In this document: one piece after another, positions 11,383 to 27,092 of the stretch
How positions within the stretch are numbered: position 1 is the stretch's first letter
Layout of the letters: each line of letters starts with the position of its first letter
Assembly: GCF_016650035.1 (NCBI RefSeq)
Contig: NZ_JAENWM010000004.1
Coordinates: forward strand, 5,896-69,895
Length of the DNA stretch: 64,000 bases
Reading direction: 5' to 3'
From: Clostridium sp.
Lineage (GTDB): Bacteria; Bacillota; Clostridia; Clostridiales; Clostridiaceae
Notes under the pieces: generated by a model
Told to the model about the DNA's origin: nothing
Database searches by the model: none
Seen by the model: the letters and a program-made list of their open reading frames with translations, nothing else
Program-made: the position numbers and the translations under genes

Positions 11383-11747
11383 GGTAACATACCTCCAACC
11401 TTTTATTTTGTTAAAATAATAAATTTTCACCTTCGTTTTTTTAACAATTTCAGATTCTTAAATTCTAATAAAAAAACAAGATTTCAGCTTCCAAGCCAAA
11501 AACACTTTATACGGACCAGGATATAGCAGTAATGCTACAGGAAGTGGTTTTGAAAATGTGTATAGGGTTTGCAAGATAAAGTAGCTAACATAAACTTCCA
11601 GTTTATGTTAGGTCCTCAGAGATCATAGTAAAAATCGGAAGTTTTTACTTTCTATTTTTCATATTTATTATAGTAGTTGGATTAATTTTTACACAGTTTA
11701 TTTATAAGATATGGCTAAACAGCCTTAGCCCAATGGAATTTAGAGCT

Positions 11748-12665
11748 TTAGCCGTTTAAATTAATTTCATTATTTTCACAGTCTAACTGTGTTATCTTCA
11801 AAGGATTAACATGGACCATACAATGTTTAACCCTATTGTTCAGACCTTCTATATTATTATGAACACTCTCCGCAATATCATGACCTTCATAAACCGATAT
11901 ATCTCTATTAACACTTATTTCTACATCTACATATAATCTATTAGCACTTACTCTAGTCTTTAGCTCATCTAAAGTTATAACACCATTTGTATTTTCAATT
12001 GATTTTTTTATGTCAATAATGATATTTGTATCAGCGCTATGATCAACTAATTGATTAACAGCTTGTTTATAAATATCTATGGCTACTTTGGTTATTAAAA
12101 CACATATTAGTAATGCTGCAATTGGATCTAATATCGGATAACCCATTCTAGCTCCTGCAATTCCAACTACTGTTCCAATAGATGATAATGCATCGGATCT
12201 ATGATGCCAAGCTTCTGCCATAAGAGCTGAACTTTCAATTTTTTTAGCACCTTTAACAGTATATCTATACATCCACTCTTTAACTATTATAGAAAGTATA
12301 GCTGCATACAACGCAATTTTTTCCGGAATTATGGTTGTTCCATTTACAATGCTCTTAATACCATTGAATCCAATTAGTAGTGCTGTAATTAACAATATTG
12401 TTGCCACTATCTTAGCTACAACAGGCTCCATTTTTTCATGACCATATGGATGATCTTCATCGGCAGGTTTTTTAGCTAAATTCAACCCCAATATTACAAC
12501 TATTGAAGCTAGCACATCAGAAAGTGAGTGTATTCCATCAGCAATCATAGCTCCACTTCTACCTACAATACCTGCAAATAATTTAAATGTGGATAATAAA
12601 ACATTTAAAACTATTGATACCTTAGATATTTTGATACCAATCTTACATCTTTCTTCACTATTCAA
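11748..12665 (-). CDS. Cation diffusion facilitator metal exporter
   Basis: ADGIHSLSD (TM2 HxxxD), HPYGH, EAWHHRSD (TM5 HxxxD), C-terminal HVNP. Confidence 0.93.
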   Translation of the reverse strand: MNSEERCKIGIKISKVSIVLNVLLSTFKLFAGIVGRSGAMIADGIHSLSDVLASIVVILGLNLAKKPADEDHPYGHEKMEPVVAKIVATILLITALLIGFNGIKSIVNGTTIIPEKIALYAAILSIIVKEWMYRYTVKGAKKIESSALMAEAWHHRSDALSSIGTVVGIAGARMGYPILDPIAALLICVLITKVAIDIYKQAVNQLVDHSADTNIIIDIKKSIENTNGVITLDELKTRVSANRLYVDVEISVNRDISVYEGHDIAESVHNNIEGLNNRVKHCMVHVNPLKITQLDCENNEINLNG

Positions 12666-12711
12666 TTAACACACCTCTGCTTTAAATTGATATTTAATTT
12701 ATTTTTATACA

Positions 12712-12826
12712 AAGAAAACCCGTAGAACATTAAACTGTCCCACAGGTATATAATTCACCCTGTTGCAATTAAGGTCCAGCATCATGCACCTTTTTATAAG
12801 TTCACCAACTGCTTAGTTTGTACTGT
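12712..12826 (-). ncRNA. NiCo (czcD) riboswitch with terminator
   Basis: Minus strand reads AAACUAAGCAG..CAUGAUGCUGGAC..GCAACAG..CUGUGGGACAGUU, matching the recalled NiCo pattern; followed by hairpin CCUGUGGGAC/GUUCUACGGG and a U-run; lies upstream of a CDF gene. Confidence 0.8.
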
Positions 12827-12977
12827 AGGTATCAATGCGCTCAAAGAATATGGCGACATATTAACATATATAGTATTATATTTTAATGTTGTTTTTCTTT
12901 TTCAACGCTAAACTATTATTTTTTTGACAACTAATTTGATAATATTTCTTTTTTAATATTGCAGTAAAGTAATCGTC

Positions 12978-14759
12978 TTATATCACTGAGCTAATATATT
13001 TTGCATTGTCCTCATTAGAGTTGTTATTATTAACTACCTGTTTTTCAAAAATATCCCAATTTGGAATAAATGGCATAGAGACATCCTTTAACTCTGAACT
13101 CATTGAAGCAATTATTGTAGGCTTTAGCTTTAGGTCATCTAATTCGTTGTAATGATTTCCAAATATTTCATCAGGATTCCCATTAAGAACTACATTTCCA
13201 TGATTTACAACTATTACTCTTGTAGCATACTTGGCTACAACTTCCATATCATGGGTTACCATAATAAGAGTTCCTCCAAAATTATAAATAATCTCCTGCA
13301 TCAACTTCAACAAACTAGCAAGATTTTTTTCATCCAAACCTGTAGTGGGTTCATCGAGCATTATTATTTTCGGATTTGCAACTAACATTGTTGCTACAGC
13401 CAATCTTTGCCTTTGACCACGGCTTAGGGAGAATGGATGATCATTTTCTTTTGCTTTAAGTTCTACAATATCAAGGGCCTTATCTGCTTCCTTTCTAATT
13501 ACATCCTCTGGTAAATTTTTATCTCTTAACCCAAACTCAATTTCTTCTCTGACAGTATTACAAAACAGCTGATTATCTGGGTTTTGGAATACATATCCAA
13601 TATCTAATATTAATTTTGAAATATCAATATCTTTTGTATTTTTCCCATTTATAAATACATCGCCAGAGGTTGGTTTTAACAGCCCAAGTATGTTTTTCAT
13701 TATAGTGGATTTTCCGGAGCCGTTATGTCCAACTATTCCGAAGAATTCACCCTTATAAATATCAAAATTGACATCAAATAATGTTTGTTTTTTTGCTTCA
13801 GGATAAGTAAAGTTTACATGTTTAATTTCTGCAACCTTTTCAGTGCTTTTAATTGTATAATCCTTATACTTTATATCAGGTATTATCAACGATCTATTAA
13901 GAATAGCTTTCCTTGTAAGTTTCTTTAGAGTTTCCTTTTTTATCGGATAACCATCCTTTGCAGATATAATTCCTTGTTCTATGAGATATTTACCAAGTCT
14001 TATATGATCCGGAATTCTGACACCAATTTTATCAAGAAGTAAAAATTGCTCATAGAATATCTGGTCTGGCTTGCCATTTAGTATTATTTCTCCGTCATGC
14101 ATTACAATGACTCTGTCTGCAAATTCCAATAAATCCGTTAAATCATGTTCAATTACTATAAATGTAACATCGACTTCATTTTTAAGTTCCTGGAGTATAT
14201 CCATTACCTCTTGCTTACTTATAGGATCCAAATCCGTTGTAGGGTCATCTAGAATTATAATTGAAGGAAGCATAGCCAGATTACTGGCTATGGACACCTT
14301 TTGTTTTTGTCCTCCTGAAAGAGAAAATGTTAGATGTCTGCTGATATCCTCTATTCTAAGCTTCTTTAACGCATATTTAACCCTTTTAACAATCTCATCT
14401 CGTTTATAGCCCTGACATTCAACTCCAAATGCAACTTCATCATCCACTCTAATGGAGAATATCTGATCCTCCGGATTTTGAAATACCATGCCTATTTCCG
14501 ATGAAATCTCATGCATTTTTACATCCTGAGTGTTTTTTCCGTTAACTATTACATCGCCTTCTATATTGCCATTCGCAAGATGAGGTATAATTCCATTTAG
14601 GCACTTTGCAAGAGTAGTTTTCCCACTTCCACTCGAACCACACATCAATACAAATTCACCTTTGTTTATTTCAAAATTCAGATTATTTATAGCTTTTTTC
14701 TTCGCTAACGGATAGGTAAAACTAAGATTTTTAATATCTAATACTTTTTTAACTTCCAT
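12978..14759 (-). CDS. ECF transporter ATPase with two fused ABC domains (A-A')
   Basis: Two Walker A motifs (GSSGSGKT, GHNGSGKS), VFQNPEDQ/VFQNPDNQ Q-loops, LSGGQKQ and LSRGQRQ; start set at ATG 14759. Confidence 0.93.
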   Translation of the reverse strand: MEVKKVLDIKNLSFTYPLAKKKAINNLNFEINKGEFVLMCGSSGSGKTTLAKCLNGIIPHLANGNIEGDVIVNGKNTQDVKMHEISSEIGMVFQNPEDQIFSIRVDDEVAFGVECQGYKRDEIVKRVKYALKKLRIEDISRHLTFSLSGGQKQKVSIASNLAMLPSIIILDDPTTDLDPISKQEVMDILQELKNEVDVTFIVIEHDLTDLLEFADRVIVMHDGEIILNGKPDQIFYEQFLLLDKIGVRIPDHIRLGKYLIEQGIISAKDGYPIKKETLKKLTRKAILNRSLIIPDIKYKDYTIKSTEKVAEIKHVNFTYPEAKKQTLFDVNFDIYKGEFFGIVGHNGSGKSTIMKNILGLLKPTSGDVFINGKNTKDIDISKLILDIGYVFQNPDNQLFCNTVREEIEFGLRDKNLPEDVIRKEADKALDIVELKAKENDHPFSLSRGQRQRLAVATMLVANPKIIMLDEPTTGLDEKNLASLLKLMQEIIYNFGGTLIMVTHDMEVVAKYATRVIVVNHGNVVLNGNPDEIFGNHYNELDDLKLKPTIIASMSSELKDVSMPFIPNWDIFEKQVVNNNNSNEDNAKYISSVI

Positions 14760-14796
14760 GTAATATCCCCCCAATTTGAAACGATTAATCATTATC

Positions 14797-15606
14797 TTAT
14801 GGTACTACTAATGTGTTTATACCTAAACCTAGACCGTATCTTATATAGATTGATGCAACAATTAGAATAATTGTTACTACCAAAACTGTATAATCTATTT
14901 TATCTAATTTGAAAACCTGGTAATAATCTTTCCATGCTCTTTTACCAAATCCTTTGCTTTCAATTGCAAGTCCCATAGTTCTGCTCCTTCTGAGGGAGTT
15001 TATCATTAGAGGAAATGCTGCCATCTTAAAGGCTCTGAAGCTCCCTTTGAATCCCTTTTTATCTATTCCTCTGATTGTTTGGGCGGTTGAGATATTAGAC
15101 ATTTCCTCAGCAATCATCGGGAACATTCTTAAAGCTGCAAGCATCATAAAAGCCACTGTAAGAGGCATTTTCATTTTCATCATAGCCTTTGCAAGCTCAG
15201 CGGGGTCAGTAGTACATATTAATATCAAAACAACCAGAGATGGTAATGCAGATCTAAAACCAAGAGTTAAGCCTGAAATAAATCCAATATCAGTGGCTAT
15301 CAGTGGACCTAACTTAAAAAGTATTTTTTGACCAGGAATATTATAGTTATAGAAGGTAGCAAAAACAACTGCTGTGATACTAAAAACTAAAATTGCAATT
15401 AATAAGGGCAGTATAGACTTTATGTCTATACTGGCACTTATCCAAATAGGAGTAAGTATTAAAGCAATTGCAAGCAAGTACCTAATATCAGTAAATAAAA
15501 GTGGGATCATAACAAAAGATATTATAAATATCAATTTAACCCTTGGGTCCATTCTATGAATCCATTTATCTTTCTCATAATTTGATGCAAAATTCATTGT
15601 ATTCAT
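14797..15606 (-). CDS. ECF transporter T component
   Basis: MDPRVKL N-terminus, TTDPAEL, AQTIRG and AIESKG coupling motifs. Confidence 0.92.
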   Translation of the reverse strand: MNTMNFASNYEKDKWIHRMDPRVKLIFIISFVMIPLLFTDIRYLLAIALILTPIWISASIDIKSILPLLIAILVFSITAVVFATFYNYNIPGQKILFKLGPLIATDIGFISGLTLGFRSALPSLVVLILICTTDPAELAKAMMKMKMPLTVAFMMLAALRMFPMIAEEMSNISTAQTIRGIDKKGFKGSFRAFKMAAFPLMINSLRRSRTMGLAIESKGFGKRAWKDYYQVFKLDKIDYTVLVVTIILIVASIYIRYGLGLGINTLVVP

Positions 15607-15693
15607 AAGTTACCTCCAAATATATTTAAACAATTATTTTATATATCAAATAAATACTAAGGTGAGTTTTTAATATTTATTTTTTACTTAGAT

Positions 15694-16272
15694 TTAATTA
15701 ATAAGTGTGCTAATCTTTTTACCTATACCCAACCCCATCATAGTTCCAATTACCATACATACTACTCCTACTGCAAATGCAGCCATAACTAATGGCATTA
15801 CAACAGGAATCATAAATACGTATATTATCATAACAAAATTAAATACAAAGTATAAAACGTTATATATAACTGAATAGACAATCATATCAATAGTGCTGGT
15901 AAATATATCATCGGGATTGCTGAATGCCTTGCATCTAATAGCTAAATAAATTTCGGGTAATAGCGGAAGCAATACTATACATGCAAAGTAATGAGGTACT
16001 TCACCCTGCAGGAAGAAGTTAATGCAGACCCAGCCTATTGTAAAAAACACACCTGCATATTTTTTTCTAGTAACCACTAGACAAGAAACCAAACAGAATG
16101 AACTAAATAACATCATAAACGAGTGGTTAAATGGGAATACAACCCCAAATGTCTTAAATACTAAAAATAGAATTCTAATTAATGCAGCAAAAACAACGAC
16201 TGTTATTAAGTCAACAGCACTAAATGCTTTCCCCATTTTAACTCTGGTTTGATTTTTATTTGTTTGTTGCAT
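15694..16272 (-). CDS. Probable ECF S component (MptD-like)
   Basis: About 190 aa, about 6 hydrophobic helices, DLITVVVFAAL start of TM1; directly upstream of ecfT-ecfAA'; ATG 16272 after RBS GGAGGG. Confidence 0.7.
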   Translation of the reverse strand: MQQTNKNQTRVKMGKAFSAVDLITVVVFAALIRILFLVFKTFGVVFPFNHSFMMLFSSFCLVSCLVVTRKKYAGVFFTIGWVCINFFLQGEVPHYFACIVLLPLLPEIYLAIRCKAFSNPDDIFTSTIDMIVYSVIYNVLYFVFNFVMIIYVFMIPVVMPLVMAAFAVGVVCMVIGTMMGLGIGKKISTLIN

Positions 16273-16328
16273 TTTAAATCCCTCCATTTATTTATTTTAA
16301 CTCACCTTATTATTTACTTTTTCATTTA

Positions 16329-17441
16329 TTAGATATTTATTGTTGATTCAGAGTGACTATCCCCTACTGTTAAGGCATCATAGCAATTCCCATCTATTTC
16401 TTTTGAAGCAATTACATAATCCGATTTCGAGTAATTATCTGCAGCCCTTCTTACAGCGTAAAGGTTTTCATCTGCTGTCTTTGGGTCACATACACAGCCC
16501 GGTCCTATTATTAGGCCTTTTCCATCTACCATCTTAATTGCTTCAGTAACGTGTTTTTCAATCTGCTCTGGATTACTGTCCAACAGTATGCTGTTGTAAT
16601 GAAGTACTCCGTCAACAAAATAAGGAACTTCCTTGATTCCACCTAAAAAGCATTTACCGGTCAGCTGTCTTGCTTGTGCAAAGTCAGGTTTTGCATATCT
16701 GTCATGCCAATTAAGACAAGTACCGGGATAATTTTTTATTGTATTAAACATAATATTATCACCATGTATATGCATTGTATTAAAGTATGTCCTATCCTTA
16801 TAGGAATCAATTACCTTAAGGTCATAATACTCACAAAAGTTTTTATATGAAATATCATCCATTAAATCATAACTCGCAGTCTGTGTGGCTAAGAAAAATC
16901 CGTCCACACCTGCATTTATATTTTCTTTAATGAAGTTTTTAGTTGTCTGAGCTATTACTTCCAAAGCAGAACTTAATATTTTCGGATTTTCTTTCATATC
17001 ATTAAATATTCTATCTCCTGCAAGCTTTCTTGCTGTGCTAAAGGGACTGAATATAGTCTGTATTATAGGGGTATGTTTTTTTCTTAGTTTGGACACCTTT
17101 TGAGCCAACTGAAGCTGTTTCCCCCATGTTCCATACACAGCAGGCAATACTTCTAAATTATTCCAATCATTTATTGATTTAATAGGCCTATCCTCAACTA
17201 TTGGTTCCTTGTACTTGTCACAATATATCTTTATTTTTGCACCCCAATCCTGAATTGAATAGGTTCCGAATGGCATTAACTTTATAAAATCAAAATCGTA
17301 CCTTTCATTAAATGCCACCTGAGCTTCTGCTAAAGCCGTGGTATCTTGATCAACTTCAGAAAAATGCATCCATACACTGGCTGGAATTCTGTCAACTTCC
17401 TCAGAATTTAAAGCAGCTCTTATTCGTTCTTCTCTGTTCAT
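16329..17441 (-). CDS. URO-D/MtaA-fold protein of unknown reaction
   Basis: RIRAAL..DRIP N-terminus, IIQTIFSPFS, DGFF, MHIHG, C-terminal IIGPGC; lacks the UroD RQAGR motif. Confidence 0.8.
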   Translation of the reverse strand: MNREERIRAALNSEEVDRIPASVWMHFSEVDQDTTALAEAQVAFNERYDFDFIKLMPFGTYSIQDWGAKIKIYCDKYKEPIVEDRPIKSINDWNNLEVLPAVYGTWGKQLQLAQKVSKLRKKHTPIIQTIFSPFSTARKLAGDRIFNDMKENPKILSSALEVIAQTTKNFIKENINAGVDGFFLATQTASYDLMDDISYKNFCEYYDLKVIDSYKDRTYFNTMHIHGDNIMFNTIKNYPGTCLNWHDRYAKPDFAQARQLTGKCFLGGIKEVPYFVDGVLHYNSILLDSNPEQIEKHVTEAIKMVDGKGLIIGPGCVCDPKTADENLYAVRRAADNYSKSDYVIASKEIDGNCYDALTVGDSHSESTINI

Positions 17442-17475
17442 GATATATATCCTCCTTCTATACTAATTTTTATTT

Positions 17476-18501
17476 TTATGAAATAATATTTTCTTTAAAA
17501 ATGCTGACTCCAGCTTCTAAAAAGTTAATATTCAATACCAATCCAGCAAGCTTAACTAGTGCTTCTGAATACTTGGTGTCTATTCCAAGAACTTTACCAA
17601 GTTTCACTATTGGTACAATTCCATATGGTATATCCTCTGTTATATACCTATGTGACAAACTTGTTGGAGCCTTGCCTTTTATATAAATTTCATTTTTGTT
17701 AAGGGCATCATATAAATTGTCATATTTAATATCGAAAAAACTGTTAATTGATTCAAGAATTGATGGACAAGTAAATCCAATTCTTTCTGCAATTGATATT
17801 CTCTCTTTGTCTATGCCCTCAATATACGCTATTTCAGATTTGGATACCCCCTCACCATAAAAAGAAAAGTCCTGCCCCTCCTCTATTCTTGCAAGATTAA
17901 ATATCGTTAAAGGAACATGAATTACTGGATTTGTGGTGCTAATTGAAGTTTCATATATGCTGCTTACCTTTTTAAATTGTGGGAATATATTCTTTAAATC
18001 ATTTAATACAATATCCACATCATTAGAATTAATTGTACTTATTGTAATCTGTTTCTTAATTCCAAGAATATTAACCTTTCCAATCTCATATGCCTTTGCC
18101 ATAAAAAGCATAGCACCTGTTTCAGCTACTATTATTTCATTATCCTTTAAAAAATTCTTGTAATATTCCTTAGCTTCAAAAGCACCCCAATTACCATTAA
18201 AAATAATTATTTTTTGTCCCTTTTCCAAATAAGGCTTTATTGCTTTAAAAACATCCAGATGATTGTTTGCAAGAGTAGTAATTAAAATATATTCTGCATC
18301 TGCAAGCGCATCCTTATAATTGCTATAGGCATTTAAGTTAAAATGTCCTTCAATTTTCCCCTCGGAATATAGGCCCTCAGATCTTAATTTCACAGCTTTT
18401 CTCTCATCTCTTGTATATACTGTTATATCACATCCAAGCTCTGAAAGATATGCACCTGTTGCCATACCAATATTACCTGCTCCTATGACCGTAGCCTTCA
18501 T
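17476..18501 (-). CDS. NAD(P)-dependent opine/octopine dehydrogenase family
   Basis: VIGAGNIG Rossmann fold, VAETG, NPVIHVP, HRYITEDIPYGI. Confidence 0.88.
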   Translation of the reverse strand: MKATVIGAGNIGMATGAYLSELGCDITVYTRDERKAVKLRSEGLYSEGKIEGHFNLNAYSNYKDALADAEYILITTLANNHLDVFKAIKPYLEKGQKIIIFNGNWGAFEAKEYYKNFLKDNEIIVAETGAMLFMAKAYEIGKVNILGIKKQITISTINSNDVDIVLNDLKNIFPQFKKVSSIYETSISTTNPVIHVPLTIFNLARIEEGQDFSFYGEGVSKSEIAYIEGIDKERISIAERIGFTCPSILESINSFFDIKYDNLYDALNKNEIYIKGKAPTSLSHRYITEDIPYGIVPIVKLGKVLGIDTKYSEALVKLAGLVLNINFLEAGVSIFKENIIS

Positions 18502-18628
18502 TTTTTACCTCCCCAGCTCCAATATTTTTATTTATTCATATTAAAAAAATAAATTATACAAAACTACTGATTGTAATTAATAAATTACAATCGTTTTCAT
18601 TAAAAATTATTAAGAACATTAACAAATT

Positions 18629-18650
18629 TGTACTGTTGTCTTTACAACTT
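18629..18650. promoter_or_regulatory. Palindromic operator A upstream of the opine dehydrogenase operon
   Basis: TGTACTGTTGTCTTTACAACTT, core GTTGT-CTTT-ACAAC; 21/22 identical to 21998..22019. Confidence 0.7.
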
Positions 18651-18725
18651 ATGCATTTTTTATGACTAATATATCAAAATGGTATAAATATAAATTATTT
18701 TTGTAATTAAGTTAAAATATAATTA

Positions 18726-20027
18726 TCAAATTATATAATAATCCACTACACTTGGTTGCTCCTCAACCATTATTTCTATGATTTGTCCATCTATGTCCCC
18801 CATGCCTTTCATACATAATTCACCTAAGTTCTTTATTGAGGTTTCTGCATCATTTCCAACTATTCCATCAAAATCAGATATGATTGTATTATTTTTTGCC
18901 AGTTCTGCCTGTAAGATAGCTTCGGAAGATGCAGTTGATAGCTTAAATGCACATCCGCCTTTAGCACCATCACAAACCATTCCGGTAATATTGCCAACCA
19001 TATTTTTAATAGCTCCTACAATTTGTATATCATTGCATCCAATAAGCCAGGCCACTGATACACAGGCTCCAATTCCTGCTGCAACACTACACCCACAGAT
19101 TGGTGATAATTTACCTGTATATTCTTTGATATAAATAGTTATTAGATGACTAAATGCCAAAGCTCTTGCAAGTTTTTCATCATCGTATCCCAAATGCCTG
19201 CATATTATGCATGGCGGGATAATTGCTGTAATTCCATGATTTCCGCTTCCCGCACTACTCATTACCGGCCTATTTACACCTGCCATTCTTGCATCTGCTG
19301 CAGCTGCTGTGGCTGAACGTACTTCATTGAGTATTCCCTTATCTAAAATCCCACTATCCATAAGATCCTTAATTCCTGAACCTAAACCTGCGCCTGACTT
19401 ATTTTTAAGACCTATTTCAGCCATCTTCATATTAAGTTTTACACCTTCAAGTAGGAACTCAATATTTTCAAAAGGGACTGTTTCTATAAAATTTCTAAGT
19501 TCTTTAATAGTTAAATTTCCTATTTTACCTAAATCTACATTTTGTATTGTTTCATTTTTTTCAAATACCACTAAGCTGTTTTTTTCAACATATACAATAT
19601 TTGTATGTGAATCTTTAATAATACATTTCGCTTCCCCACGGTCACTGATTACTACAGCTTCTATGAAAAATTTCCCCTTATTTTCTTCAATTTTAATTTT
19701 TACTTTATTATCACCTACAATTCTCTTGGCAGTCGCTATAAAAATATCGTTTACATTTTTTAAAACTTCAAATTCCGATTCCGGTTCTCCACAGACAACA
19801 GCCAATGCAGCCACAAAAGTTATCCCTTTTTCCGTTGTCCCTGGGATTCCAACCCGCATACCATTTTTGTAAATATTCGGGCTTATCTTAACTTCAATAC
19901 TTTTAACTTCACCTCCTATTTGCTTATAAGCTTTAGAAACTGCTATAGCTACTGCCACTGGTTCCGTACAACCAAGTGCTGGTTTTACCTGATTCCTTAA
20001 GACATCTACAATTTTATTGAAATCCAC
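18726..20027 (-). CDS. cdsB: Fe-S L-cysteine desulfidase (CdsB/CyuA, serine dehydratase alpha-like)
   Basis: KPALGCTEP, SSAGSGNHGI, LSPICGC, GMVCDGAKGGCAFK motifs; GTG start. Confidence 0.85.
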   Translation of the reverse strand: MDFNKIVDVLRNQVKPALGCTEPVAVAIAVSKAYKQIGGEVKSIEVKISPNIYKNGMRVGIPGTTEKGITFVAALAVVCGEPESEFEVLKNVNDIFIATAKRIVGDNKVKIKIEENKGKFFIEAVVISDRGEAKCIIKDSHTNIVYVEKNSLVVFEKNETIQNVDLGKIGNLTIKELRNFIETVPFENIEFLLEGVKLNMKMAEIGLKNKSGAGLGSGIKDLMDSGILDKGILNEVRSATAAAADARMAGVNRPVMSSAGSGNHGITAIIPPCIICRHLGYDDEKLARALAFSHLITIYIKEYTGKLSPICGCSVAAGIGACVSVAWLIGCNDIQIVGAIKNMVGNITGMVCDGAKGGCAFKLSTASSEAILQAELAKNNTIISDFDGIVGNDAETSIKNLGELCMKGMGDIDGQIIEIMVEEQPSVVDYYII

Positions 20028-20057
20028 ATTATCACTCCTTTGCTTATATATTCATAT

Positions 20058-20074
20058 AGCAATTATAATGCCAA
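20058..20074 (-). promoter_or_regulatory. Sigma54 -24/-12 promoter of cdsB
   Basis: Minus strand TTGGCATTATAATTGCT (GG-N10-GC), about 30 nt upstream of the start codon. Confidence 0.9.
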
Positions 20075-20110
20075 CTATAAATTAGCGTATTGCTCATTTT
20101 TTGTTTCTAA

Positions 20111-20150
20111 AGTTTTCAATTTTGAAAATATATAATCAAAATTGAAAACT
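20111..20150. promoter_or_regulatory. Candidate enhancer (UAS) for the sigma54 activator
   Basis: AGTTTTCAATTTTGA-N10-TCAAAATTGAAAACT perfect 15 bp inverted repeat; the left arm is itself part of the dyad TTTTCAA-TT-TTGAAAA. Confidence 0.6.
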
Positions 20151-21927
20151 ATGAATCATATTCGTTCATTCTTCTATATAATGTGGTTAAACTTATACCA
20201 AGTTTTTTTGAAGTTTCCTTTTTCCCTTCAATAGTTCTTCCATATCGTTTGAGATACTGTTCTATAATATTTCTCTGAAATATATTTGTGATTTCTTCAA
20301 GATTTCCCTTTATAATTGATTCTTCACAGTAAAATTTATTTGTTTTTGGTTCATCTAACATAAAATAATCAGGCATATCATTAATTTCAATTACTTCATT
20401 TTCGGAAAAAATTACTGCATATTCCAGAACATTTTCAAGTTCACGAATATTTCCCGGCCAATTATATAATAAAAATTTTCTTTCAACTTCTGTTGATATT
20501 ATTTTATGGGTTATCCCCATTTTTTCACATATATTATTGAGAATATACCCACAGCATAACAGAACATCCTCTTCTCTTTCAGCAAGCGTAGGAATACACA
20601 ATGGTATAACGTTCAATCTATAATATAAATCTTGCCTAAACTTTTGATCTTTCACGAGCTCTAAAAGGTCTTTGTGAGTTGCCGTAATTATTCTTACATC
20701 AACTTTTATTGGATAGTTACCACCTACCCTTACTATTTCTCTTTGTTGAAGAACTCTTAATAATTTGGGTTGAAGATGCAATGGAAAATCTCCAATTTCG
20801 TCTAAAAATAATGTACCCTTGTTTGCTAACTCAAATTTCCCTATTTTCCCCTGAGGGTTTGCTCCTGTGAAAGCACCCTTCTCATAGCCAAAAAGCTCGG
20901 ATTCTAAAAGATTTTCAGGTATGGTTGAACAATTTAATGCAATAAATGGCCTGTTTTTTCTAGGACTTGAATTATGAATAGACATGGCAACTAATTCTTT
21001 TCCTGTTCCACTATCCCCTTGAATTAAAATTGTCGCAGAAGTTTGGGCTGAAACCTTAGCTTTCTCAATAACATTCACTAATTTTTTACTTTTGCCTACT
21101 ATATTATTAAAATTTATTTGGGAGTCACCCTTTGCATTCAGTGCTCTATCCAATATTTCTTCTATTTCATCAAAGCTTATCAGAATTGATATTCTTTTAT
21201 CATTCAATACCATATTACTTATTTTATATAATACTTTTAGCTTTTTCCCATTTACTTCCCATTCTCCCATAGTTTCAATGTCATTTGTCCCTTTTGTTAT
21301 AATATTTTTTATTACGTTTTCCACAGATTTATAAAGTACTTTCTCATAACTAAGATTTAAACCTAATATATTTATAGATTTTGCATTAACATGGGTTATT
21401 TCCTTTTCGGAATTTAAAATAATAATTCCCTTGTCTATTGAGTTAATAATTACGTCAACTTCTGCAATTTCAACATTGAGACTATTTAAAATTCTGATGT
21501 TTTCTATTTCCTTTTGAATTTGTTCAACAATCTGAGATAAAATATAGAAGTATTCATTCTGTTTATTAATCATTAGATTCTTTTGTTCAGACTTAAATGC
21601 GATAAATCCTATTACTCCCAGAATGCTGTTTCCTATAATAATGGGATAAGCCATGCTACAAATTTCCTTGCATTCAACGTATGCATAACAATCTCTGCAT
21701 ATGTTACTATCCAGCTTACTAACGTTAATTTCAGATTTACCGGAATTTAATATCTTAGAGAAAATGGAATTCTTAGGGCTATCTTTATTTACCTGCTCAT
21801 AATAGTCTCCTGTACCAACTATCCTTACAAGATTTTGATCTACAACGGTAACGTCAACATTTAATCTTAAACATACATCATCTGCAAACTGTTGAATTTT
21901 ATCCTGTATTAACCTCAAATAAGACAT
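20149..21927 (-). CDS. Sigma54-dependent enhancer-binding protein (CdsR-like)
   Basis: GDSGTGKE Walker A, ESELFGYEKGAFTGA, LFLDEIG, WPGNIREL, C-terminal HTH LGISLTTLYRR. Confidence 0.93.
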   Translation of the reverse strand: MSYLRLIQDKIQQFADDVCLRLNVDVTVVDQNLVRIVGTGDYYEQVNKDSPKNSIFSKILNSGKSEINVSKLDSNICRDCYAYVECKEICSMAYPIIIGNSILGVIGFIAFKSEQKNLMINKQNEYFYILSQIVEQIQKEIENIRILNSLNVEIAEVDVIINSIDKGIIILNSEKEITHVNAKSINILGLNLSYEKVLYKSVENVIKNIITKGTNDIETMGEWEVNGKKLKVLYKISNMVLNDKRISILISFDEIEEILDRALNAKGDSQINFNNIVGKSKKLVNVIEKAKVSAQTSATILIQGDSGTGKELVAMSIHNSSPRKNRPFIALNCSTIPENLLESELFGYEKGAFTGANPQGKIGKFELANKGTLFLDEIGDFPLHLQPKLLRVLQQREIVRVGGNYPIKVDVRIITATHKDLLELVKDQKFRQDLYYRLNVIPLCIPTLAEREEDVLLCCGYILNNICEKMGITHKIISTEVERKFLLYNWPGNIRELENVLEYAVIFSENEVIEINDMPDYFMLDEPKTNKFYCEESIIKGNLEEITNIFQRNIIEQYLKRYGRTIEGKKETSKKLGISLTTLYRRMNEYDS

Positions 21928-21997
21928 ATTACCCCCCCCTAGTGTAATTGTAATTATTTTTAGTTCACTAGTACTATTGTATCTATGAATTATTAAC

Positions 21998-22019
21998 TGT
22001 ATTGTTGTCTTTACAACTT
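21998..22019. promoter_or_regulatory. Palindromic operator B upstream of the sigma54 activator gene
   Basis: TGTATTGTTGTCTTTACAACTT; near-identical to 18629..18650. Confidence 0.7.
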
Positions 22020-22187
22020 CTTAATTCTAGTTTATAATTTTTTTAACCAAAAGTCAACCAATATTTGTTATTTTAGTAAAATATTATAAAATATATTTTG
22101 TTGATTTGTCATAACTAATTACTCCCATTTTTTCTTATATAAATCATATTAGTATAACTCTGTATCATTCAATTCTTAATAAATGTT

Positions 22188-22319
22188 CTATAATTGGGCA
22201 TAAAAAGACCCGGAGAACATTAAACTGTACCACGGGTATATAATTATATAAATTTGCCTATTTTCATAAGATGGTGATATCCCACCATTGCTTTCCGCTT
22301 GTAATAATGCTATGTTCAA
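22188..22319 (-). CDS. Possible 43 aa ORF or chimeric gene stump
   Basis: AAGGAGG-N5-TTG; MNIALLQAESNGGISPSYENRQIYIIIYPWYSLMFSGSFYAQL*; reads through the NiCo-like repeat. Confidence 0.25.
   Translation of the reverse strand: MNIALLQAESNGGISPSYENRQIYIIIYPWYSLMFSGSFYAQL
22208..22245 (-). repeat. Degenerate copy of the NiCo riboswitch 3' end and terminator
   Basis: 35/38 ungapped identity to 12718..12755, same orientation. Confidence 0.85.
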
Positions 22320-22483
22320 ATTAGCCTCCTTAATTTTTGATGCTTTTGCCTATCTCTATTTATTTTACAATACAGGTAAAACATCCTTGTTTCACTATGG
22401 TTTCTATACATATGAAAATAAATTATATTAAGTTGTAAATTTCTGTTATGTTACTACACATACCCCTTCAGCAGTACTGTGTA

Positions 22484-23215
22484 TTACGTTAACTCAAAAT
22501 TAATAAATGGTTTATATTTATCTGCTTTTGCTATGGTTACGGTATAGGCTATGATTTCATTTTTTTCACCTATTATGTTCGATTCCCAGGATATAAGTGG
22601 TCTATCTTTTGGAACATTTAACATATTCATTTCAAATTTGCTAGGAAACTTGGCATCAATGTGTATGTGAAGGTACTTCGGATTCAAATTTAAAATATTT
22701 TTAAGATATTCATGTAGATAATAATTCGACAAATTCTCTTCATTATGTATACTACCATTAATTATTGATGCTGGGATATAAGAGTAGTCAATAGCTATAG
22801 TCTCCTTTAAATCAACCATTTCCCTTGTGATTTTACATACCTCTTCCCCCTCTTTAAGATTAAGTTTTTTAATTATACTTTCATTTGCATTCATAAATTC
22901 AATACTTACTACTTTATGGTTTCTAAATTCAGAAATTTCAGATGAAATTTTAGATGATTTAGAAAGTGTATGTTTCATACCTAGAAAATCCTCATTTGTA
23001 AATTTCACAAATGTACCCTTTCCTCTGATCCTTTCTACTATGCCAAGTATATTTAATTCCGAAACAGCCTTATTTGAGGTAACTCTGCTTACATTAAACA
23101 TAACAGAAAGCTCATTTTCTGATGGTAATTTATCTCCTATGACAAAATCACCCTGGCTTATCTTATCAATAATATAGTTTTGAATTATTACATATTTCGG
23201 TGTAAAATCATTCAC
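22484..23215 (-). CDS. GntR-family regulator, HutC/UTRA subfamily
   Basis: GDKLPSENEL..FNVSRVT..RIRGKGTFV wHTH plus a UTRA-length C-terminal domain; 243 aa. Confidence 0.92.
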   Translation of the reverse strand: MNDFTPKYVIIQNYIIDKISQGDFVIGDKLPSENELSVMFNVSRVTSNKAVSELNILGIVERIRGKGTFVKFTNEDFLGMKHTLSKSSKISSEISEFRNHKVVSIEFMNANESIIKKLNLKEGEEVCKITREMVDLKETIAIDYSYIPASIINGSIHNEENLSNYYLHEYLKNILNLNPKYLHIHIDAKFPSKFEMNMLNVPKDRPLISWESNIIGEKNEIIAYTVTIAKADKYKPFINFELT

Positions 23216-23416
23216 TTTATATCTCTCCTTAATTACTTATTATATTATTATTATCATAAGCTATTACTAAAATAAAGACAATAATACATATACAAATATA
23301 TTTATTCTCATGAGAATTGATTTCCCACTAATTTAGATAATATAAGATTTTATGAGGATCAGTATATATAGCCTACTAGCCACTTTTTATTTTCGTTCTT
23401 AACTTACCAAGTGCCA

Positions 23417-24322
23417 TCACATATTTAGCAAAACAACTGCTACAACTATAAAGCCTATAGATATAAATTGACGTGTAGTCAGTTTTTCTTTGAAGAATAG
23501 CAAGTTAATAATATTAACTACTAGGATTACACCTACTGAAAATAAGGGGAATACAACGAATGCAGGAATTGATGTAAGAGCGCGCAGTAAGAACTGGGAT
23601 ATAAATTGAGAAGGGATTCCTGCTATAAGACCAAAGATAATATCCGTACGCTTTATCCTACGATCCTTAACCAACATGAATATTCCTGTAACTATAAATG
23701 AGAACAGAAATGTGAAAAAGATAAACAAACTTTGAAATTCTTCTGTTCCATATATCTGGTATATCTTAGAAGTAAAGTCACAAAACCCTCCAAGAAAGAA
23801 TGTACCAAATAGTGCGAATTTTAAGGTTACAATATTATTTTCCTCTTTTTTAAAGTAAATAACCAATATTGCTGACATTGCAACTAATACACCCACAATC
23901 TGCAATAACTTAGGGATTTCATGAAAGAAGATAACAGATAAAATAGCCGGCACCATGACGCCAATCTTATTGAATGTAGCCGTCATTGCACTGCCATTAT
24001 GTGCAGTACTTATTTGTAATAAATAAAATGCACCAAAATAGATAAAACCATTAAATAAAGCAAGAAGCAATGTGAATATAGATGGCGTAATCCGAATTAA
24101 ATTACTGCCTTGAGCTGTTCTTTGTCCTAATTCAGATATGAATAAAGTAACCCATTGAGGGTCAGATATCATTTGTGTAAAAGCAAGCATCAGGCTGAAG
24201 ATAGTTGCTCCTAGAAAACTGAAAAAACAGACTGCTAAACGGTTAGAATTGCTTTTTTCAGTAAACTTAAATAAGACATTTAAACTTGAAGAGAAAAGTA
24301 TTGCAAAAATAAGAAATATCAT
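23417..24322 (-). CDS. DMT/EamA-family transporter
   Basis: 301 aa, about 10 hydrophobic segments in two similar halves, C-terminal FFKEKLT..GF. Confidence 0.8.
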   Translation of the reverse strand: MIFLIFAILFSSSLNVLFKFTEKSNSNRLAVCFFSFLGATIFSLMLAFTQMISDPQWVTLFISELGQRTAQGSNLIRITPSIFTLLLALFNGFIYFGAFYLLQISTAHNGSAMTATFNKIGVMVPAILSVIFFHEIPKLLQIVGVLVAMSAILVIYFKKEENNIVTLKFALFGTFFLGGFCDFTSKIYQIYGTEEFQSLFIFFTFLFSFIVTGIFMLVKDRRIKRTDIIFGLIAGIPSQFISQFLLRALTSIPAFVVFPLFSVGVILVVNIINLLFFKEKLTTRQFISIGFIVVAVVLLNM

Positions 24323-24671
24323 ATTATTTTCTCCTTTTCATAATTATTGTTCAATTGCTACTAATGTAACATCTATTTCATTTATATCTAATATCAATTG
24401 CCTTTGCATTTTTACCTTCCATTTCATCCTATTAGTATGTAATTTATTTTTTAATTTAATTACATAATATTATATCATATTTATATTTATATCTCTAATT
24501 CAATTAACATATGCTTAAATCACTAATAGGGGACTCGCCAACATTTCTCTGAATCACACCAATAGGGTAAAAAACAACCTAAAGCTAACTAATACCTATA
24601 AATAGGCTAATCCAAAATATCTATTGAAAAAGAAGTTTATCATCAATCATTCTGCCTAGTTTGTGCATACC

Positions 24672-25170
24672 AATTGCTTTTATAACAGAAAAATATCCTT
24701 GCTGAACCATGTCCTCAAACTCATAGCTTTCTATATAGTATTTTAAAGTTTCTTTTAAAACCAAATATTTTCTCTACCTTTAAATCCTGTACCTCCCACT
24801 TTCGGTAAAGTATCTCTATAAACTTGAAGTTTTTCACTTTACTTAATTCTTTATTTACGCATTTAATTGCATTGCTGTTATTTGTCAGATTAAATTTTAT
24901 CTAGTTTAAAATCATAATTTCTTTTGTTTCATCACAATAAACTATCTTATTGTACTCACAGAACCTATTAAGAAGCTTGTCTATAGTTTCTCTATTATAT
25001 CCAGTCTCAATAACTATGATTTGTTTAGTAAGTTCATAAATACCACACTGACTCAGAGTCTAGTGTTAATGATATAAACTATACTTATATAGAAATTCAG
25101 GAGGACGATGCTCATGGCAAGTAGTTATATAAGGAAAAGAAACAAGAAACATAGTGCAATTCTAAAGTAG
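24672..25170. mobile_element. Mosaic of phage-like gene fragments
   Basis: Minus strand 25053->~24760: SQCGIYELTKQIIVIETGYNRETIDKLLNRFCEYNKIVYCDETKEIMILN*IKFN..KCVNKELSKVKN (replication/DnaD-type). ~24757->24672: YYIESYEFEDMVQQGYFSVIK (sigma region 2-like). Plus strand 25114..25170: RBS plus MASSYIRKRNKKHSAILK* (integrase arm-domain-like). Confidence 0.55.
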
Positions 25171-25457
25171 GAAGTTAATGCTAATAACTCATTTCTTCAC
25201 ATAAGACACATATAAAATAAGCATGACATATGCAAATTCTCATTCTAACCACATATAATATTTATTCTTATGTCGTATTACCTATCTACCTAACTATGTC
25301 TTACAACTATTATATAAGGCATTATTCCCCCTATTGACCATTAGCTTGAATAGTAACTTAGTTTATAGATAAAAAAAGCACGGTTTTTCATTCTAAAATG
25401 ATTCCCGTACTTTTTATTTGTTTTTCTCCGTGCCTTTTGAATCTTATAAAAATATAA

Positions 25458-26936
25458 TTATAGTATAATGCAGATTAAACTGCCATTACCCTCATTAATA
25501 ATTCTTTGAAGAGTCTTCTGAATTTTTACTTGCACATCATCAGGCATCTTAAATAATTTATTTTGAAGGCCCTCTTTAACTAATACTTCCAAAGATTTAC
25601 CAAACATATTACTCTGCCAAATTTGAGATTTATCATTTTCAAACTGATCTAAGATGGATTTATAGAACTCTTCACTTTGCTTTTCCGTACCCATAATAGG
25701 GGACACTTCAGTCTGTATATCTGCCCTTATAAAATGAAGTGAAGGTGCCGAGGCCCTTAATTTAACTCCATATCTGCCACCATGTTGTACTATTTCAGGT
25801 TCTTCTAAAGTCATTTCTGAAAGTTGTGGTGCTACAAGTCCATATCCTTTTTCTTTAACATCTCTTAAAGCATCTGCAATTTTATCATATTCGGTTTTAG
25901 CTCTAGAGAACTCTCCCATTAATGTTAACAGATCATTTTCTCCCTTTATTTCACAAGCACAAGTTTCACCTAGTATTTTGTAAAATAATTCTTGCCTAGG
26001 AATTAAATTAACTCTGGCAGTACCTTCTCCCATATTCATTTCATCAAGTCTTGCAGAATCTAAAAAATCAACTTCTTTAAAGCTTAGTAAAGATTTATTT
26101 ATATCTCTAACTTTAAATATATCCTTACACATATCTTTTAAGAATTTCATAAAGCTAATTTTTACCCAATGCTTAGAACTTAAATTTTCAATCCACTCTG
26201 GCATATCTATGTTAATTTCTTTAACTGGGAATTCTTTAAGAACCCTTTGGAATATATTGGCTATATCTCCCTCATTCATATTTAGTACATCCATAACTTG
26301 AACTGGCACATCATATTTTTCTTCTAATTCCGTTGCTAAGGCTGCTGTTTCAGGTGTAGATGCATTTTTGGAATTTAACACCATTATAAAAGGTTTATTA
26401 ATGGCCTTAAGCTCATTAACCACCCTTTCTTCAGCTTCTACATATTCCATTCGTTCTATGCCTGTGATAGAACCATCTGTAGTGATCAAAAGTCCAATAG
26501 TTGAATGTTCATTTATTACCTTCTTTGTTCCAAGTTCTGCCGCTTCTTCAAATGGAATTTCATAGTCGTACCAAGGAGTTGTAACCATTTTAGGTGTTTC
26601 TCCTTCAGCATATCCTAGCGCTCCTTTAACAATGTACCCAACACAATCAACCATTCTTACTTTGAATTTAGTGCCACCCTCAAATTCAATTTCTACTGCT
26701 TCGTTGGGTACAAATTTAGGTTCAGTAGTATGAATTGATTTCCCTGAACCACTTTGAGGTAGTTCATCTATGGCTCTTTCTTTTTTATGGGGATTGTCTA
26801 TTTTAGGAATTACCAAAAGCTCCATAAATCTCTTTATAAATGTCGATTTTCCAGTTCTTACGGGACCTACAACACCTACGTAAATATCCCCTTGAGTTCT
26901 CTCTGCTATATCCTTGTATATATCAAAATTATCCAA
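25458..26936 (-). CDS. spoIVA: Stage IV sporulation protein A
   Basis: DIAERTQGDIYVGVVGPVRTGKSTFIKRF; C-terminal LICIIL; TTG start at 26936. Confidence 0.98.
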   Translation of the reverse strand: MDNFDIYKDIAERTQGDIYVGVVGPVRTGKSTFIKRFMELLVIPKIDNPHKKERAIDELPQSGSGKSIHTTEPKFVPNEAVEIEFEGGTKFKVRMVDCVGYIVKGALGYAEGETPKMVTTPWYDYEIPFEEAAELGTKKVINEHSTIGLLITTDGSITGIERMEYVEAEERVVNELKAINKPFIMVLNSKNASTPETAALATELEEKYDVPVQVMDVLNMNEGDIANIFQRVLKEFPVKEINIDMPEWIENLSSKHWVKISFMKFLKDMCKDIFKVRDINKSLLSFKEVDFLDSARLDEMNMGEGTARVNLIPRQELFYKILGETCACEIKGENDLLTLMGEFSRAKTEYDKIADALRDVKEKGYGLVAPQLSEMTLEEPEIVQHGGRYGVKLRASAPSLHFIRADIQTEVSPIMGTEKQSEEFYKSILDQFENDKSQIWQSNMFGKSLEVLVKEGLQNKLFKMPDDVQVKIQKTLQRIINEGNGSLICIIL

Positions 26937-27092
26937 GATATACCCTCCCAATTCTTATTATTAACATTATAATTATATTTTAGATAACAATGAATTATTA
27001 CTACTGATTAAAAAAATATAAAAAAAACCAATTTTTCATTAATTACTTAGTGAAAAATTGGTTTTTTATATTAAAATTCTTATTTATAATCT

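Follow-up and report, generated by a model that had tools for sequence, protein, structure and literature searches.

A 64 kb stretch of Clostridium sp. DNA (the window) contains an island encoding a putative energy-coupling factor (ECF) importer, an opine dehydrogenase (ODH), an enzyme with the URO-D fold, a CyuA-like iron-sulfur lyase, two regulators and a metal exporter, and comparison with other genomes indicates that this island is built from two recurrent modules, A and B. Module A would comprise a HutC-type repressor with its 16-bp operator, an ODH of the N-(1-D-carboxyethyl)-L-norvaline dehydrogenase (CENDH) type, an MtaA-like metalloenzyme, an ECF importer with its own family of S (substrate-capture) component, a cation diffusion facilitator (CDF) protein under a NiCo riboswitch and an EamA transporter. 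Module B would comprise a CdsR-like sigma54-dependent activator which, acting through an upstream activating sequence (UAS) and a -24/-12 promoter, drives the CyuA-like lyase. With moderate confidence, we read the island as a horizontally acquired system for the uptake and breakdown of a thiol- or cysteine-type N-carboxyalkyl ligand that may enter the cell together with a metal of the Ni/Co class, under two-tier control in which a HutC-type repressor precedes a sigma54 activator. An earlier note on this DNA had proposed import of a cysteine conjugate by the ECF system, release of cysteine by the ODH and the URO-D-fold enzyme, and degradation of that cysteine by a CdsR/CdsB pair. The functional linkage of these genes is borne out and a reading based on sulfur and metal is plausible, whereas the assignment of regulator and lyase as orthologues of CdsR and CdsB does not stand and the metal-efflux partner had been missed.

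The island consists of nine intact open reading frames (ORFs), recognised by ORF listing combined with Pfam and NCBIfam matches, all located on the minus strand and read from 24322 to 12978 (Table 1). Families and common orientation are as the earlier note had described, with the correction that the ORFs number nine and not eight. The unit continues past the ATPase gene, at which that description had ended, to include the NiCo riboswitch and the CDF gene (11748-12826). A single transcript extending from odh through the URO-D-like, S, T and A/A' genes is plausible, as had been suggested, because these genes are separated by gaps of only 34, 41, 87 and 4 bp, respectively; the SDH_alpha gene is separated from odh by 224 bp that hold a distinct operator and promoter region. 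Between the SDH_alpha gene and odh the coding strand shows no hairpin resembling a terminator, and read-through from the former into the latter may therefore be possible.

Table 1. Positions, within the window, of the genes and regulatory elements of the island.
Feature	Position	Strand	Size and evidence
EamA/DMT membrane transporter	23417..24322	-	301 aa; Pfam EamA 59 bits
HutC-type GntR/UTRA regulator	22484..23215	-	243 aa; Pfam GntR 58 bits and UTRA 63 bits
NiCo riboswitch, partial copy (3' end and terminator hairpin)	22202..22245	-	Direct repeat with 12712-12755
Predicted operator, copy 1, AGTTGTAAAGACAACA	22003..22018	-	76-91 bp upstream of the start codon of the sigma54 enhancer-binding protein (EBP) gene
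Sigma54 EBP, CdsR/PrdR-like	20149..21927	-	592 aa; Sigma54_activat 238 bits, AAA_lid_14, HTH_8
Inverted repeat containing TTTTCAAAATTGAAAA, presumed UAS for the EBP	20113..20148 (about)	-	Read directly in the sequence
Predicted sigma54 -24/-12 promoter, TTGGCATTATAATTGC (TGGCATTATAATTGC)	20059..20073	-	Pattern match; 32 bp upstream of the SDH_alpha start codon
CyuA/CdsB-like [4Fe-4S] lyase, SDH_alpha family	18726..20027	-	433 aa; Pfam SDH_alpha 186 bits
Predicted operator, copy 2, AGTTGTAAAGACAACA	18634..18649	-	133-148 bp upstream of the odh start codon
NAD(P)-dependent ODH, CENDH type	17476..18501	-	341 aa; Octopine_DH 137 bits
URO-D-fold MtaA-like metalloenzyme	16329..17441	-	370 aa; Pfam URO-D 98 bits
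ECF S component, putative	15694..16287	-	197 aa; weak Trep_Strep match
ECF T component	14797..15606	-	269 aa; Pfam CbiQ 131 bits
Fused ECF A/A' ATPase	12978..14792	-	604 aa; ECF_ATPase_1 490 bits and ECF_ATPase_2 468 bits, both above cut-off
NiCo (czcD-type) riboswitch aptamer	12733..12826	-	Rfam RF02683, 39.2 bits against a gathering score of 37, E 6e-6
CDF divalent-metal efflux protein	11748..12665	-	305 aa; Cation_efflux and ZT_dimer

The neighbourhoods of ODH homologues were surveyed in six loci reached by protein lookup and 38 genome loci. The arrangement ODH-(UROD)-S-T-AA' recurs in 16 ODH-seeded loci, distributed over Bacillota (Clostridia), Anaerolineae, Synergistota and Desulfobacterota, so that the linkage of enzyme and transporter families anticipated by the earlier note is borne out by a conserved cassette; their co-occurrence is far beyond chance. 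Adjacent to the ECF-ODH core are a CDF gene in 11 of the 16 loci, a GntR/UTRA gene in 10, a URO-D-like gene in four, EamA in two and SDH_alpha in one. The closest relative, locus L001 of a Clostridiaceae metagenome-assembled genome (ODH 72% and ATPase 81% identical to those of the window), has the order GntR, then ODH-UROD-S-T-AA'-CDF-EamA, which is the gene set of the window minus the EBP and SDH_alpha genes. The Desulfobacter locus (L018) has GntR, then ODH-UROD-S-T-AA'-CDF-SDH_alpha. Of the clusters retrieved with the S-component profile, two were examined for gene context and gave further loci, GntR(FCD)-ODH-S-T-AA' in Cytobacillus (L074) and a locus (L075) in which GntR(FCD), a UROD gene, a related S-T-AA' set, a split aminotransferase, a CDF, a CsoR/RcnR-like regulator and a P-type ATPase are accompanied by a SufS-like cysteine desulfurase in the position of the ODH. 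EamA homologues 66% and 63% identical to that of the window directly follow the ODH-ECF(-CDF) cassette in L001 and L008, and the EamA/DMT protein can thus be regarded as an accessory member of the cassette, possibly an exporter of product or ligand.

The three enzymes are also found together beside importers of other types, CyuA-like, URO-D-like and ODH genes clustering with ECF, TRAP, TTT, AbgT or DcuC systems. All three are contiguous in Lawsonibacter-type loci (TctCBA-UROD-SDH_alpha-ODH-SDR) and lie in one cluster in the Acidaminococcus type (UROD-M24-SDH_alpha-AbgT-?-ODH, with LysR regulators). A further locus, L069, has AraC, then UROD-DcuC-SDH_alpha-M20-EamA with a dehydrogenase of the beta-hydroxyacid/imine-reductase type. 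The binding proteins of the TRAP and TTT importers in related operons gave only distant, uninformative PDB matches and no clue to a ligand.

The window ODH has the fold typical of its family, a Rossmann GxGxxG motif in which G7, G9 and G12 are invariant followed by a C-terminal Octopine_DH helical domain, the latter scoring well above its cut-off of 30 bits, with additional ApbA and NAD_Gly3P_dh_N matches at the N-terminus. The family profile matches the Arthrobacter N-(1-D-carboxyethyl)-L-norvaline dehydrogenase (1bg6) with an E-value of 1e-70 and structures of the staphylopine dehydrogenase CntM with values of only 6e-5 to 4e-4. H195, R285 and D290 are invariant in 23 homologues and align with the NAVMHP and TRYFFED segments of 1bg6, which presumably hold the catalytic residues that we take to be numbered His202, Arg292 and Asp297 in CENDH. 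ODH relatives of anaerobes outside the ECF loci adjoin importers of the ABC amino-acid, DcuC, TRAP and TTT types, an arrangement that favours the catabolic direction. Membership in a staphylopine-type biosynthetic pathway was considered and rejected: the ODH is unlike CntM, and a search that did return a match in a control genome found no nicotianamine synthase (NAS)/CntL gene (PF03059) in this one, which speaks against biosynthesis of the Cnt type.

The S, T and A/A' genes are located in one operon, as is typical of group I ECF importers; the T component also reaches 105 bits with TIGR02454, for which the cut-off is 112. The S component is predicted to represent a small, distinct family outside the characterised ones. 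It has no NCBIfam match and no PDB relative at E<=1 that would place it in a family with a known substrate, and a search with its profile retrieved only 91 clusters from 5.8 billion proteins, some named 'MptD family putative ECF transporter S component'. Alignment of 14 homologues reveals invariant VFPFNH and FFLQGE motifs and, among the invariant polar residues, N54, H55, C69, E96, E112, D127, R38, K45 and K75. Such residues would be compatible with an anionic ligand, which may be metal-bearing.

By profile and predicted structure, the URO-D-like enzyme is closer to MtaA than to UroD or MetE. Its profile matches MtaA (4ay7) at E 2e-14, with HIHG aligned to the MtaA HICG and PGC to PGC, and its AF2 model (pLDDT 84.8), which has the (beta/alpha)8 URO-D fold, finds 4ay7 as its best Foldseek match (TM 0.74/0.81). 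H224, H226, H246 and C316 are invariant across 13 homologues, giving an H-x-H...H...C pattern in place of the H-x-C...C zinc motif of MtaA. Two known functions were rejected for this protein. Uroporphyrinogen decarboxylase (HemE) is not indicated, as no HemE model is among the NCBIfam matches and the profile reaches UroD structures in the PDB at only 2e-3 to 4e-3, compared with 2e-14 for MtaA. A corrinoid methyltransferase of the MtaA/CmuA type is rejected on motif, on score (these are the best NCBIfam models, at 58-88 bits against cut-offs of 235-600) and on missing partners, Pfam and NCBIfam assigning no corrinoid- or B12-binding family among the nine cluster proteins.

The window SDH_alpha protein aligns end to end with the solved L-cysteine desulfidase CyuA (9fsl, E 4e-34), retaining the GCTE, Arg (R-M), SGN, CGC and CDG-K-GC motifs. 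The protein thus retains the cysteines of the cluster as well as Cys/Glu, Arg, Asn and Lys of the active site, with roles as named for CyuA (PMC12647591). The label CdsR/CdsB cannot be retained for the window pair, as it is a second, divergent copy with its own UAS. A resident EBP and SDH_alpha pair, the copy common to congeners, is located on another contig (C97:82045-85255); its EBP is 38% and its SDH_alpha 43% identical to the corresponding window protein, and it is probably the true cdsR-cdsB of this organism. In a maximum-likelihood tree, the resident CdsB proteins form a separate 100/100 clade that includes the C97 copy, and the window protein groups in a 100/99 clade with UROD-linked proteins (L059, L061, L070 and L071, to which it is 58-62% identical) and with L060. 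A third, distant 100/100 clade contains the ODH-adjacent SDH_alpha proteins of L018, L024, L035 and L031/32/38. The clades of the window and of the Desulfobacter cassette thus differ, which indicates that CyuA-like genes have been recruited independently, at least twice. The best NCBIfam model for the window EBP is PrdR, with a score below its cut-off.

The operons most similar to module B are those of Natronincola ferrireducens (L059) and Abyssisolibacter fermentans (L061), in which EBP, SDH_alpha, URO-D-like and DctPQM genes follow one another and where EBP is 50%, SDH_alpha 60-62% and UROD 51-53% identical to the window proteins. In L070 and L071, SDH_alpha is divergent from TctC-TctA-UROD, L071 adding a CDF and an EBP 50% identical to that of the window. 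Of 400 genomes in a balanced sample of the class, only four have the URO-D-like subfamily, and SDH_alpha lies beside it in all four; URO-D-like and CyuA-like genes are thus near-obligate neighbours. A published sigma54 regulon, 'YcbP: phyL-uroD-eamA' of Dehalobacterium and Desulfosporosinus, likewise places a URO-D-family gene and EamA under an EBP, without explanation there (PMC6615313, Table 1), and may belong to the same network.

Two minor observations concern SDH_alpha relatives. The nearest tree neighbour of the window protein (L060:6545-9142) has a RidA-like gene upstream and AP_endonuc_2 (a xylose-isomerase-like TIM barrel) downstream, with no URO-D-like gene. A distant homologue of 33-35% identity, present in four genomes of the same genus (G001, G005, G008 and G012) and one of the same order (G023), has exactly one in-frame stop codon in several of these (TAA; TGA in G023), and, rather than a pseudogene, may be a serine dehydratase encoded by two ORFs (beta and alpha) that the search joined by reading through the stop.

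Control of module A is predicted to centre on a 16-bp palindrome, AGTTGTAAAGACAACW, which is conserved before odh across taxa and of which an identical copy precedes the EBP gene in the window. Upstream of odh, the operator occurs with no more than two mismatches in L001 (two sites), L002, L007 and L012 and with four mismatches and an intact core in L003, while palindromic variants precede odh in L004, L011, L014, L018 and L036, at least 10 loci in all. This conservation identifies the palindrome as the predicted site of the HutC-type regulator of the cassette. The GntR/UTRA protein, which is presumed to be the repressor, combines a GntR winged helix-turn-helix and a UTRA effector domain, and with the GT-N4-AC core of the palindrome fits the HutC subfamily; orthologues of 57-59% identity are encoded divergently from odh in L001 and L002. 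The exact 16-mer is present only twice in the 64 kb, and the sequences flanking the two copies have diverged within about 29 nt. For module B, TTGGCAT-N5-TTGCA promoters equivalent to that of the window are found in L059 and L061, preceded, as in the window, by TTTTCA-N4/5-TGAAAA palindromes, and the sigma54 gene itself is present in the genome (contig C149). Promoter and terminator consensus scans did not rise above shuffled background and were not used.

A near-perfect inverted repeat, GATTGTAATT-tatt-AATTACAATC (18569-18592, minus strand), separates the HutC-type operator from the ribosome-binding site of odh and is followed, after about 10 bp, by a TATAAT box. Another regulator could use it as an additional operator, or it could form a weak, AT-rich hairpin that influences read-through out of the SDH_alpha gene.

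The CDF exporter is the most consistent partner of the cassette and is often riboswitch-controlled, which shifts the reading toward a metal-loaded ligand. In the window, the NiCo riboswitch match is full length (model positions 1-96) and directly upstream of the CDF gene; a NiCo riboswitch likewise precedes the cassette-adjacent CDF in L007, L011 and L015 (53-73 bits), where CDF is a separate unit, and in L004 and L006 the CDF and ATPase genes overlap or abut. Neighbours of L003 and L075 include CsoR/RcnR-like regulators and P-type ATPases, with a CDF in the latter locus as in L071. The czcD/NiCo riboswitch has been argued to respond to Fe(II) also. With no metal-specific model reached by the CDFs, we therefore consider the metal class to be Ni/Co and possibly Fe(II). 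The window CDF has a paralogue of 79% identity at C9:30065-30922, the upstream region of which has no similarity to the NiCo riboswitch. An independent parallel is the nickel-adaptation island of serpentine-soil Mesorhizobium, in which genes for an opine dehydrogenase and a CDF accompany those for an ABC importer of amino acids or opines (Porter et al. 2017, PMC5315480).

From this gene content, these regulatory sites and their linkage across genomes, we infer the following chemistry. The ECF importer would take up a scarce N-(carboxyalkyl) amino-acid ligand bearing a thiol or cysteine-type group, at least in part as a chelate of a Ni/Co-class metal (possibly Fe(II)). The opine dehydrogenase would split the secondary amine oxidatively, yielding a 2-oxo acid and an amino acid, the His/His/(His)/Cys metal site of the MtaA-like enzyme would bind the sulfur and free a cysteine-like product, and the CyuA-like lyase would convert this product to pyruvate, ammonia and sulfide. 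Metal released in the process would be expelled by the CDF once the riboswitch senses an excess. The HutC-type repressor would gate both the odh-ECF operon and the EBP gene, and the EBP, given its own signal, would then fire the sigma54 promoter; under such two-tier control, the lyase would be made only with the substrate present and the downstream product accumulating. The sulfur component of this reading is supported by the descent of the URO-D-like metal site from a thiol-activating one, by the partnership with CyuA-like enzymes and by the SufS-like desulfurase that occupies the ODH position in L075, and EamA partners also reinforce the cysteine or thiol flavour.

A number of observations weigh against this scheme. 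UROD is missing from 12 of 16 other ECF-ODH loci and SDH_alpha is non-adjacent in 15 of 16, which makes the cysteine step accessory and not core and the sulfur branch as a whole optional, such that the core ligand need not contain sulfur. All CyuA active-site residues are kept in the window lyase, which may therefore be a plain cysteine desulfidase. On the metal side, the window riboswitch exceeds the gathering score by a narrow margin, the CDFs match MamB and FieF models most closely and no metal-specific equivalog, and the importer is governed by a HutC-type regulator and no metal sensor, which is unusual for metal acquisition. The second operator copy could be a by-product of a rearrangement, perhaps without being a selected site. 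Finally, the sequencing runs containing this sequence are four permafrost metagenome DNA runs and zero RNA runs, and thus provide no transcript evidence, including for read-through from the lyase gene into odh. A bolder form of the proposal, which we regard as rather unlikely, is that the island is the first instance of a new route of thiophilic-metal (Ni/Co, perhaps Fe(II)) acquisition in sulfidic anoxic habitats, in which the ECF importer takes up a small thiol-bearing opine-type chelate, the ODH, MtaA-like enzyme and cysteine-type C-S lyase in turn destroy the ligand and so release the metal, and the CDF serves as an overflow valve. If true, the ligand would represent a new class both of metallophore and of ECF substrate, and the URO-D fold would have gained a new function.

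Adjacency in the window could instead be fortuitous, with a self-contained sigma54-dependent pair for degradation of cysteine (or a serine-type substrate), paralogous to CdsR/CdsB, lying beside an independent ODH-ECF-CDF cassette and the shared operator being a rearrangement scar. The rearrangement itself is documented. The 3' end of the riboswitch is duplicated as a direct repeat (22202-22245 and 12712-12755; 44 nt, 89% identity), the sole two copies genome-wide, with the full element called only at 12733-12826 and the other copy following the GntR gene as a fragment, which indicates a past rearrangement bracketing the block from EBP to ATPase. The pair also has its own UAS and sigma54 promoter, retains every CyuA catalytic residue, lacks a counterpart adjacent to nearly all other ECF-ODH cores, as counted above, and belongs to a clade of which one member, L060, has no neighbouring UROD. 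Against this stand the otherwise consistent occurrence of the window SDH_alpha clade with URO-D-like genes and importers, the URO-D-like gene being supplied in the window by the cassette; the independent joining of a second SDH_alpha clade to the same cassette in Desulfobacter; and the grouping of the three enzymes, whose genes adjoin one another in Lawsonibacter-type loci and share a cluster in Acidaminococcus. In addition, the operator has been kept as an exact 16-mer although its flanks have already diverged, and a resident cdsR-cdsB pair is already present in the genome. Combined, these results render two unrelated units unlikely.

The direction of the ODH reaction and the role of the metal provide two further alternatives. 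The ODH could act reductively to make an opine-type, possibly thiol, metallophore that EamA exports, with the ECF importer recapturing the metal complex and the CDF guarding against overload, a Cnt-like cycle assembled from different parts. CntM-type opine dehydrogenases do make metallophores of the staphylopine class, and an EamA-family exporter (CntI) is used in Pseudomonas. EamA is part of the cassette in the window, L001 and L008, the link to metal export is strong, and an island with ODH and CDF is tied to nickel tolerance in Mesorhizobium (PMC5315480). Such a cycle nevertheless appears improbable in view of the lack of a nicotianamine-synthase-like CntL in the genome, the resemblance of the ODH to CENDH and not to CntM (1e-70 versus 6e-5), a repressor of the HutC small-molecule type with no Zur, Fur or Nur box identified, the general proximity of ODH relatives to importers, as in catabolic loci, and the degradative character of the accessory enzymes (CyuA-like and SufS-like). 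Alternatively, salvage could be free of metal, the ECF importer taking up an opine-like or vitamin-like compound and the CDF being an independent, frequent neighbour or helping to balance the metal cofactors that the enzymes need. Vitamins and vitamin precursors are the typical ligands of ECF S components, cassette loci without a CDF exist (L002, L009, L010, L016 and L074), and in four loci the CDF has its own riboswitch and is therefore separately regulable. We give this the least weight of all, as the CDF is adjacent in most ECF-ODH loci (11/16) across four phyla, overlapping or abutting the ATPase gene in two, and more metal-homeostasis genes lie beside L003 and L075. Furthermore, an Rfam scan of 11000-27000 at E<=1 detected only the NiCo element and no SAM, T-box, cobalamin or TPP riboswitch, so that a vitamin or methionine-salvage reading gains no support.

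In outline, the proposed uptake-and-breakdown system is similar both to loci for opine catabolism and to those for Cnt metallophores, and is a member of neither. CdsR/CdsB (CyuA) is the sigma54-dependent L-cysteine desulfidase system of Clostridioides difficile and Clostridium (PMC5767170, PMC6615313; structure, PMC12647591). As in that system, the window EBP gene is directly upstream of the SDH_alpha gene, the promoter has the form TTGGCAT-N5-TTGC, the CyuA cluster and active-site residues align, and the palindromic UAS resembles the published CdsR2 site in architecture. In contrast, the window UAS has TTTTCA half-sites where those published for CdsR1 and CdsR2 have TTTGCA or TCTCA, the pair is a second copy from a separate clade of operons with a URO-D-like enzyme and TRAP or TTT importers, and the EBP gene carries a HutC-type operator. 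The window ODH is homologous to CENDH over its full length, the GxGxxG motif and the invariant His, Arg and Asp columns aligning, but heads an operon with an ECF importer and a CDF, whereas CENDH is from an aerobe and has no known transporter or metal context. With the Cnt systems (staphylopine, pseudopaline and yersinopine), the island shares the proximity of an ODH gene to those for an importer, for a transporter of the EamA type and for homeostasis of Ni/Co-class metals; it differs in having no CntL/NAS, an ODH remote from CntM, an ECF importer, a HutC regulator and degradative sulfur-lyase partners. The URO-D-like enzyme retains the metal-site positions of the MtaA/MtbA/CmuA methylcobamide:CoM methyltransferases (4ay7), although the first Cys ligand is replaced by His and an extra His is invariant. 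The Mesorhizobium nickel island (PMC5315480) likewise unites ODH, CDF and an amino-acid/opine importer, there statistically tied to growth in nickel, yet has an ABC importer in an aerobic alphaproteobacterium, no URO-D-like or CyuA-like genes and no proposed mechanism; the likeness is drawn from gene content.

Each part of the island comes from a known protein family (CENDH-type ODH, CyuA-like lyase, group I ECF importer, HutC regulator, NiCo riboswitch and CDF), and no description of the combination was found in the literature searched, nor one of ODH with ECF and URO-D or of URO-D with cysteine desulfidase. What is gained is a small and sharply bounded S-component family, a regulator conserved together with its operator, a URO-D-fold enzyme whose metal site is altered and which is nearly always accompanied by a CyuA-like Fe-S lyase, and a repeated link between opine dehydrogenase and Ni/Co-class efflux, seen in nickel-adapted rhizobia too. 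Knowing the substrate would give function to several "hypothetical" families at once and could show how anaerobes obtain or detoxify thiophilic metals, or consume cysteine-derived conjugates, with a bearing on sulfur and metal cycling in gut, rumen, sediment and permafrost. Experiments are feasible since cultured carriers exist, namely Chakrabartyella piscis, Cytobacillus oceanisediminis, Natronincola ferrireducens, Abyssisolibacter fermentans, Lawsonibacter, Acidaminococcus massiliensis and Enterocloster citroniae.

The island itself appears to have been acquired by horizontal transfer. ODH is absent from 18 same-genus genomes, and the cassette is therefore considered a sporadic, horizontally acquired element, as also indicated by the location of the resident cdsR-cdsB pair elsewhere in the genome; the GC content of the island resembles that of the flanks. 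Both flanks carry housekeeping genes: upstream are spoIVA, gpsA and der, while genes for an epimerase and a Kbl/BioF-like acyltransferase lie downstream. Two small ORFs on the minus strand were also observed. One, preceded by a good ribosome-binding site (AGGAGG) and encoding about 25 aa, is located at 22245-22320, between the GntR stop codon and the riboswitch-derived terminator fragment. The other, of 47 aa (MVLKETLKYYIESYEFEDMVQQGYFSVIKAIGMHKLGRMIDDKLLFQ, 24621-24764), is located in the gene-poor spacer at 24322-25458 and resembles a fragment of sigma-70 region 2, which suggests that a gene for a sigma factor has decayed in the interval from spoIVA to the island and may be the scar of an insertion.

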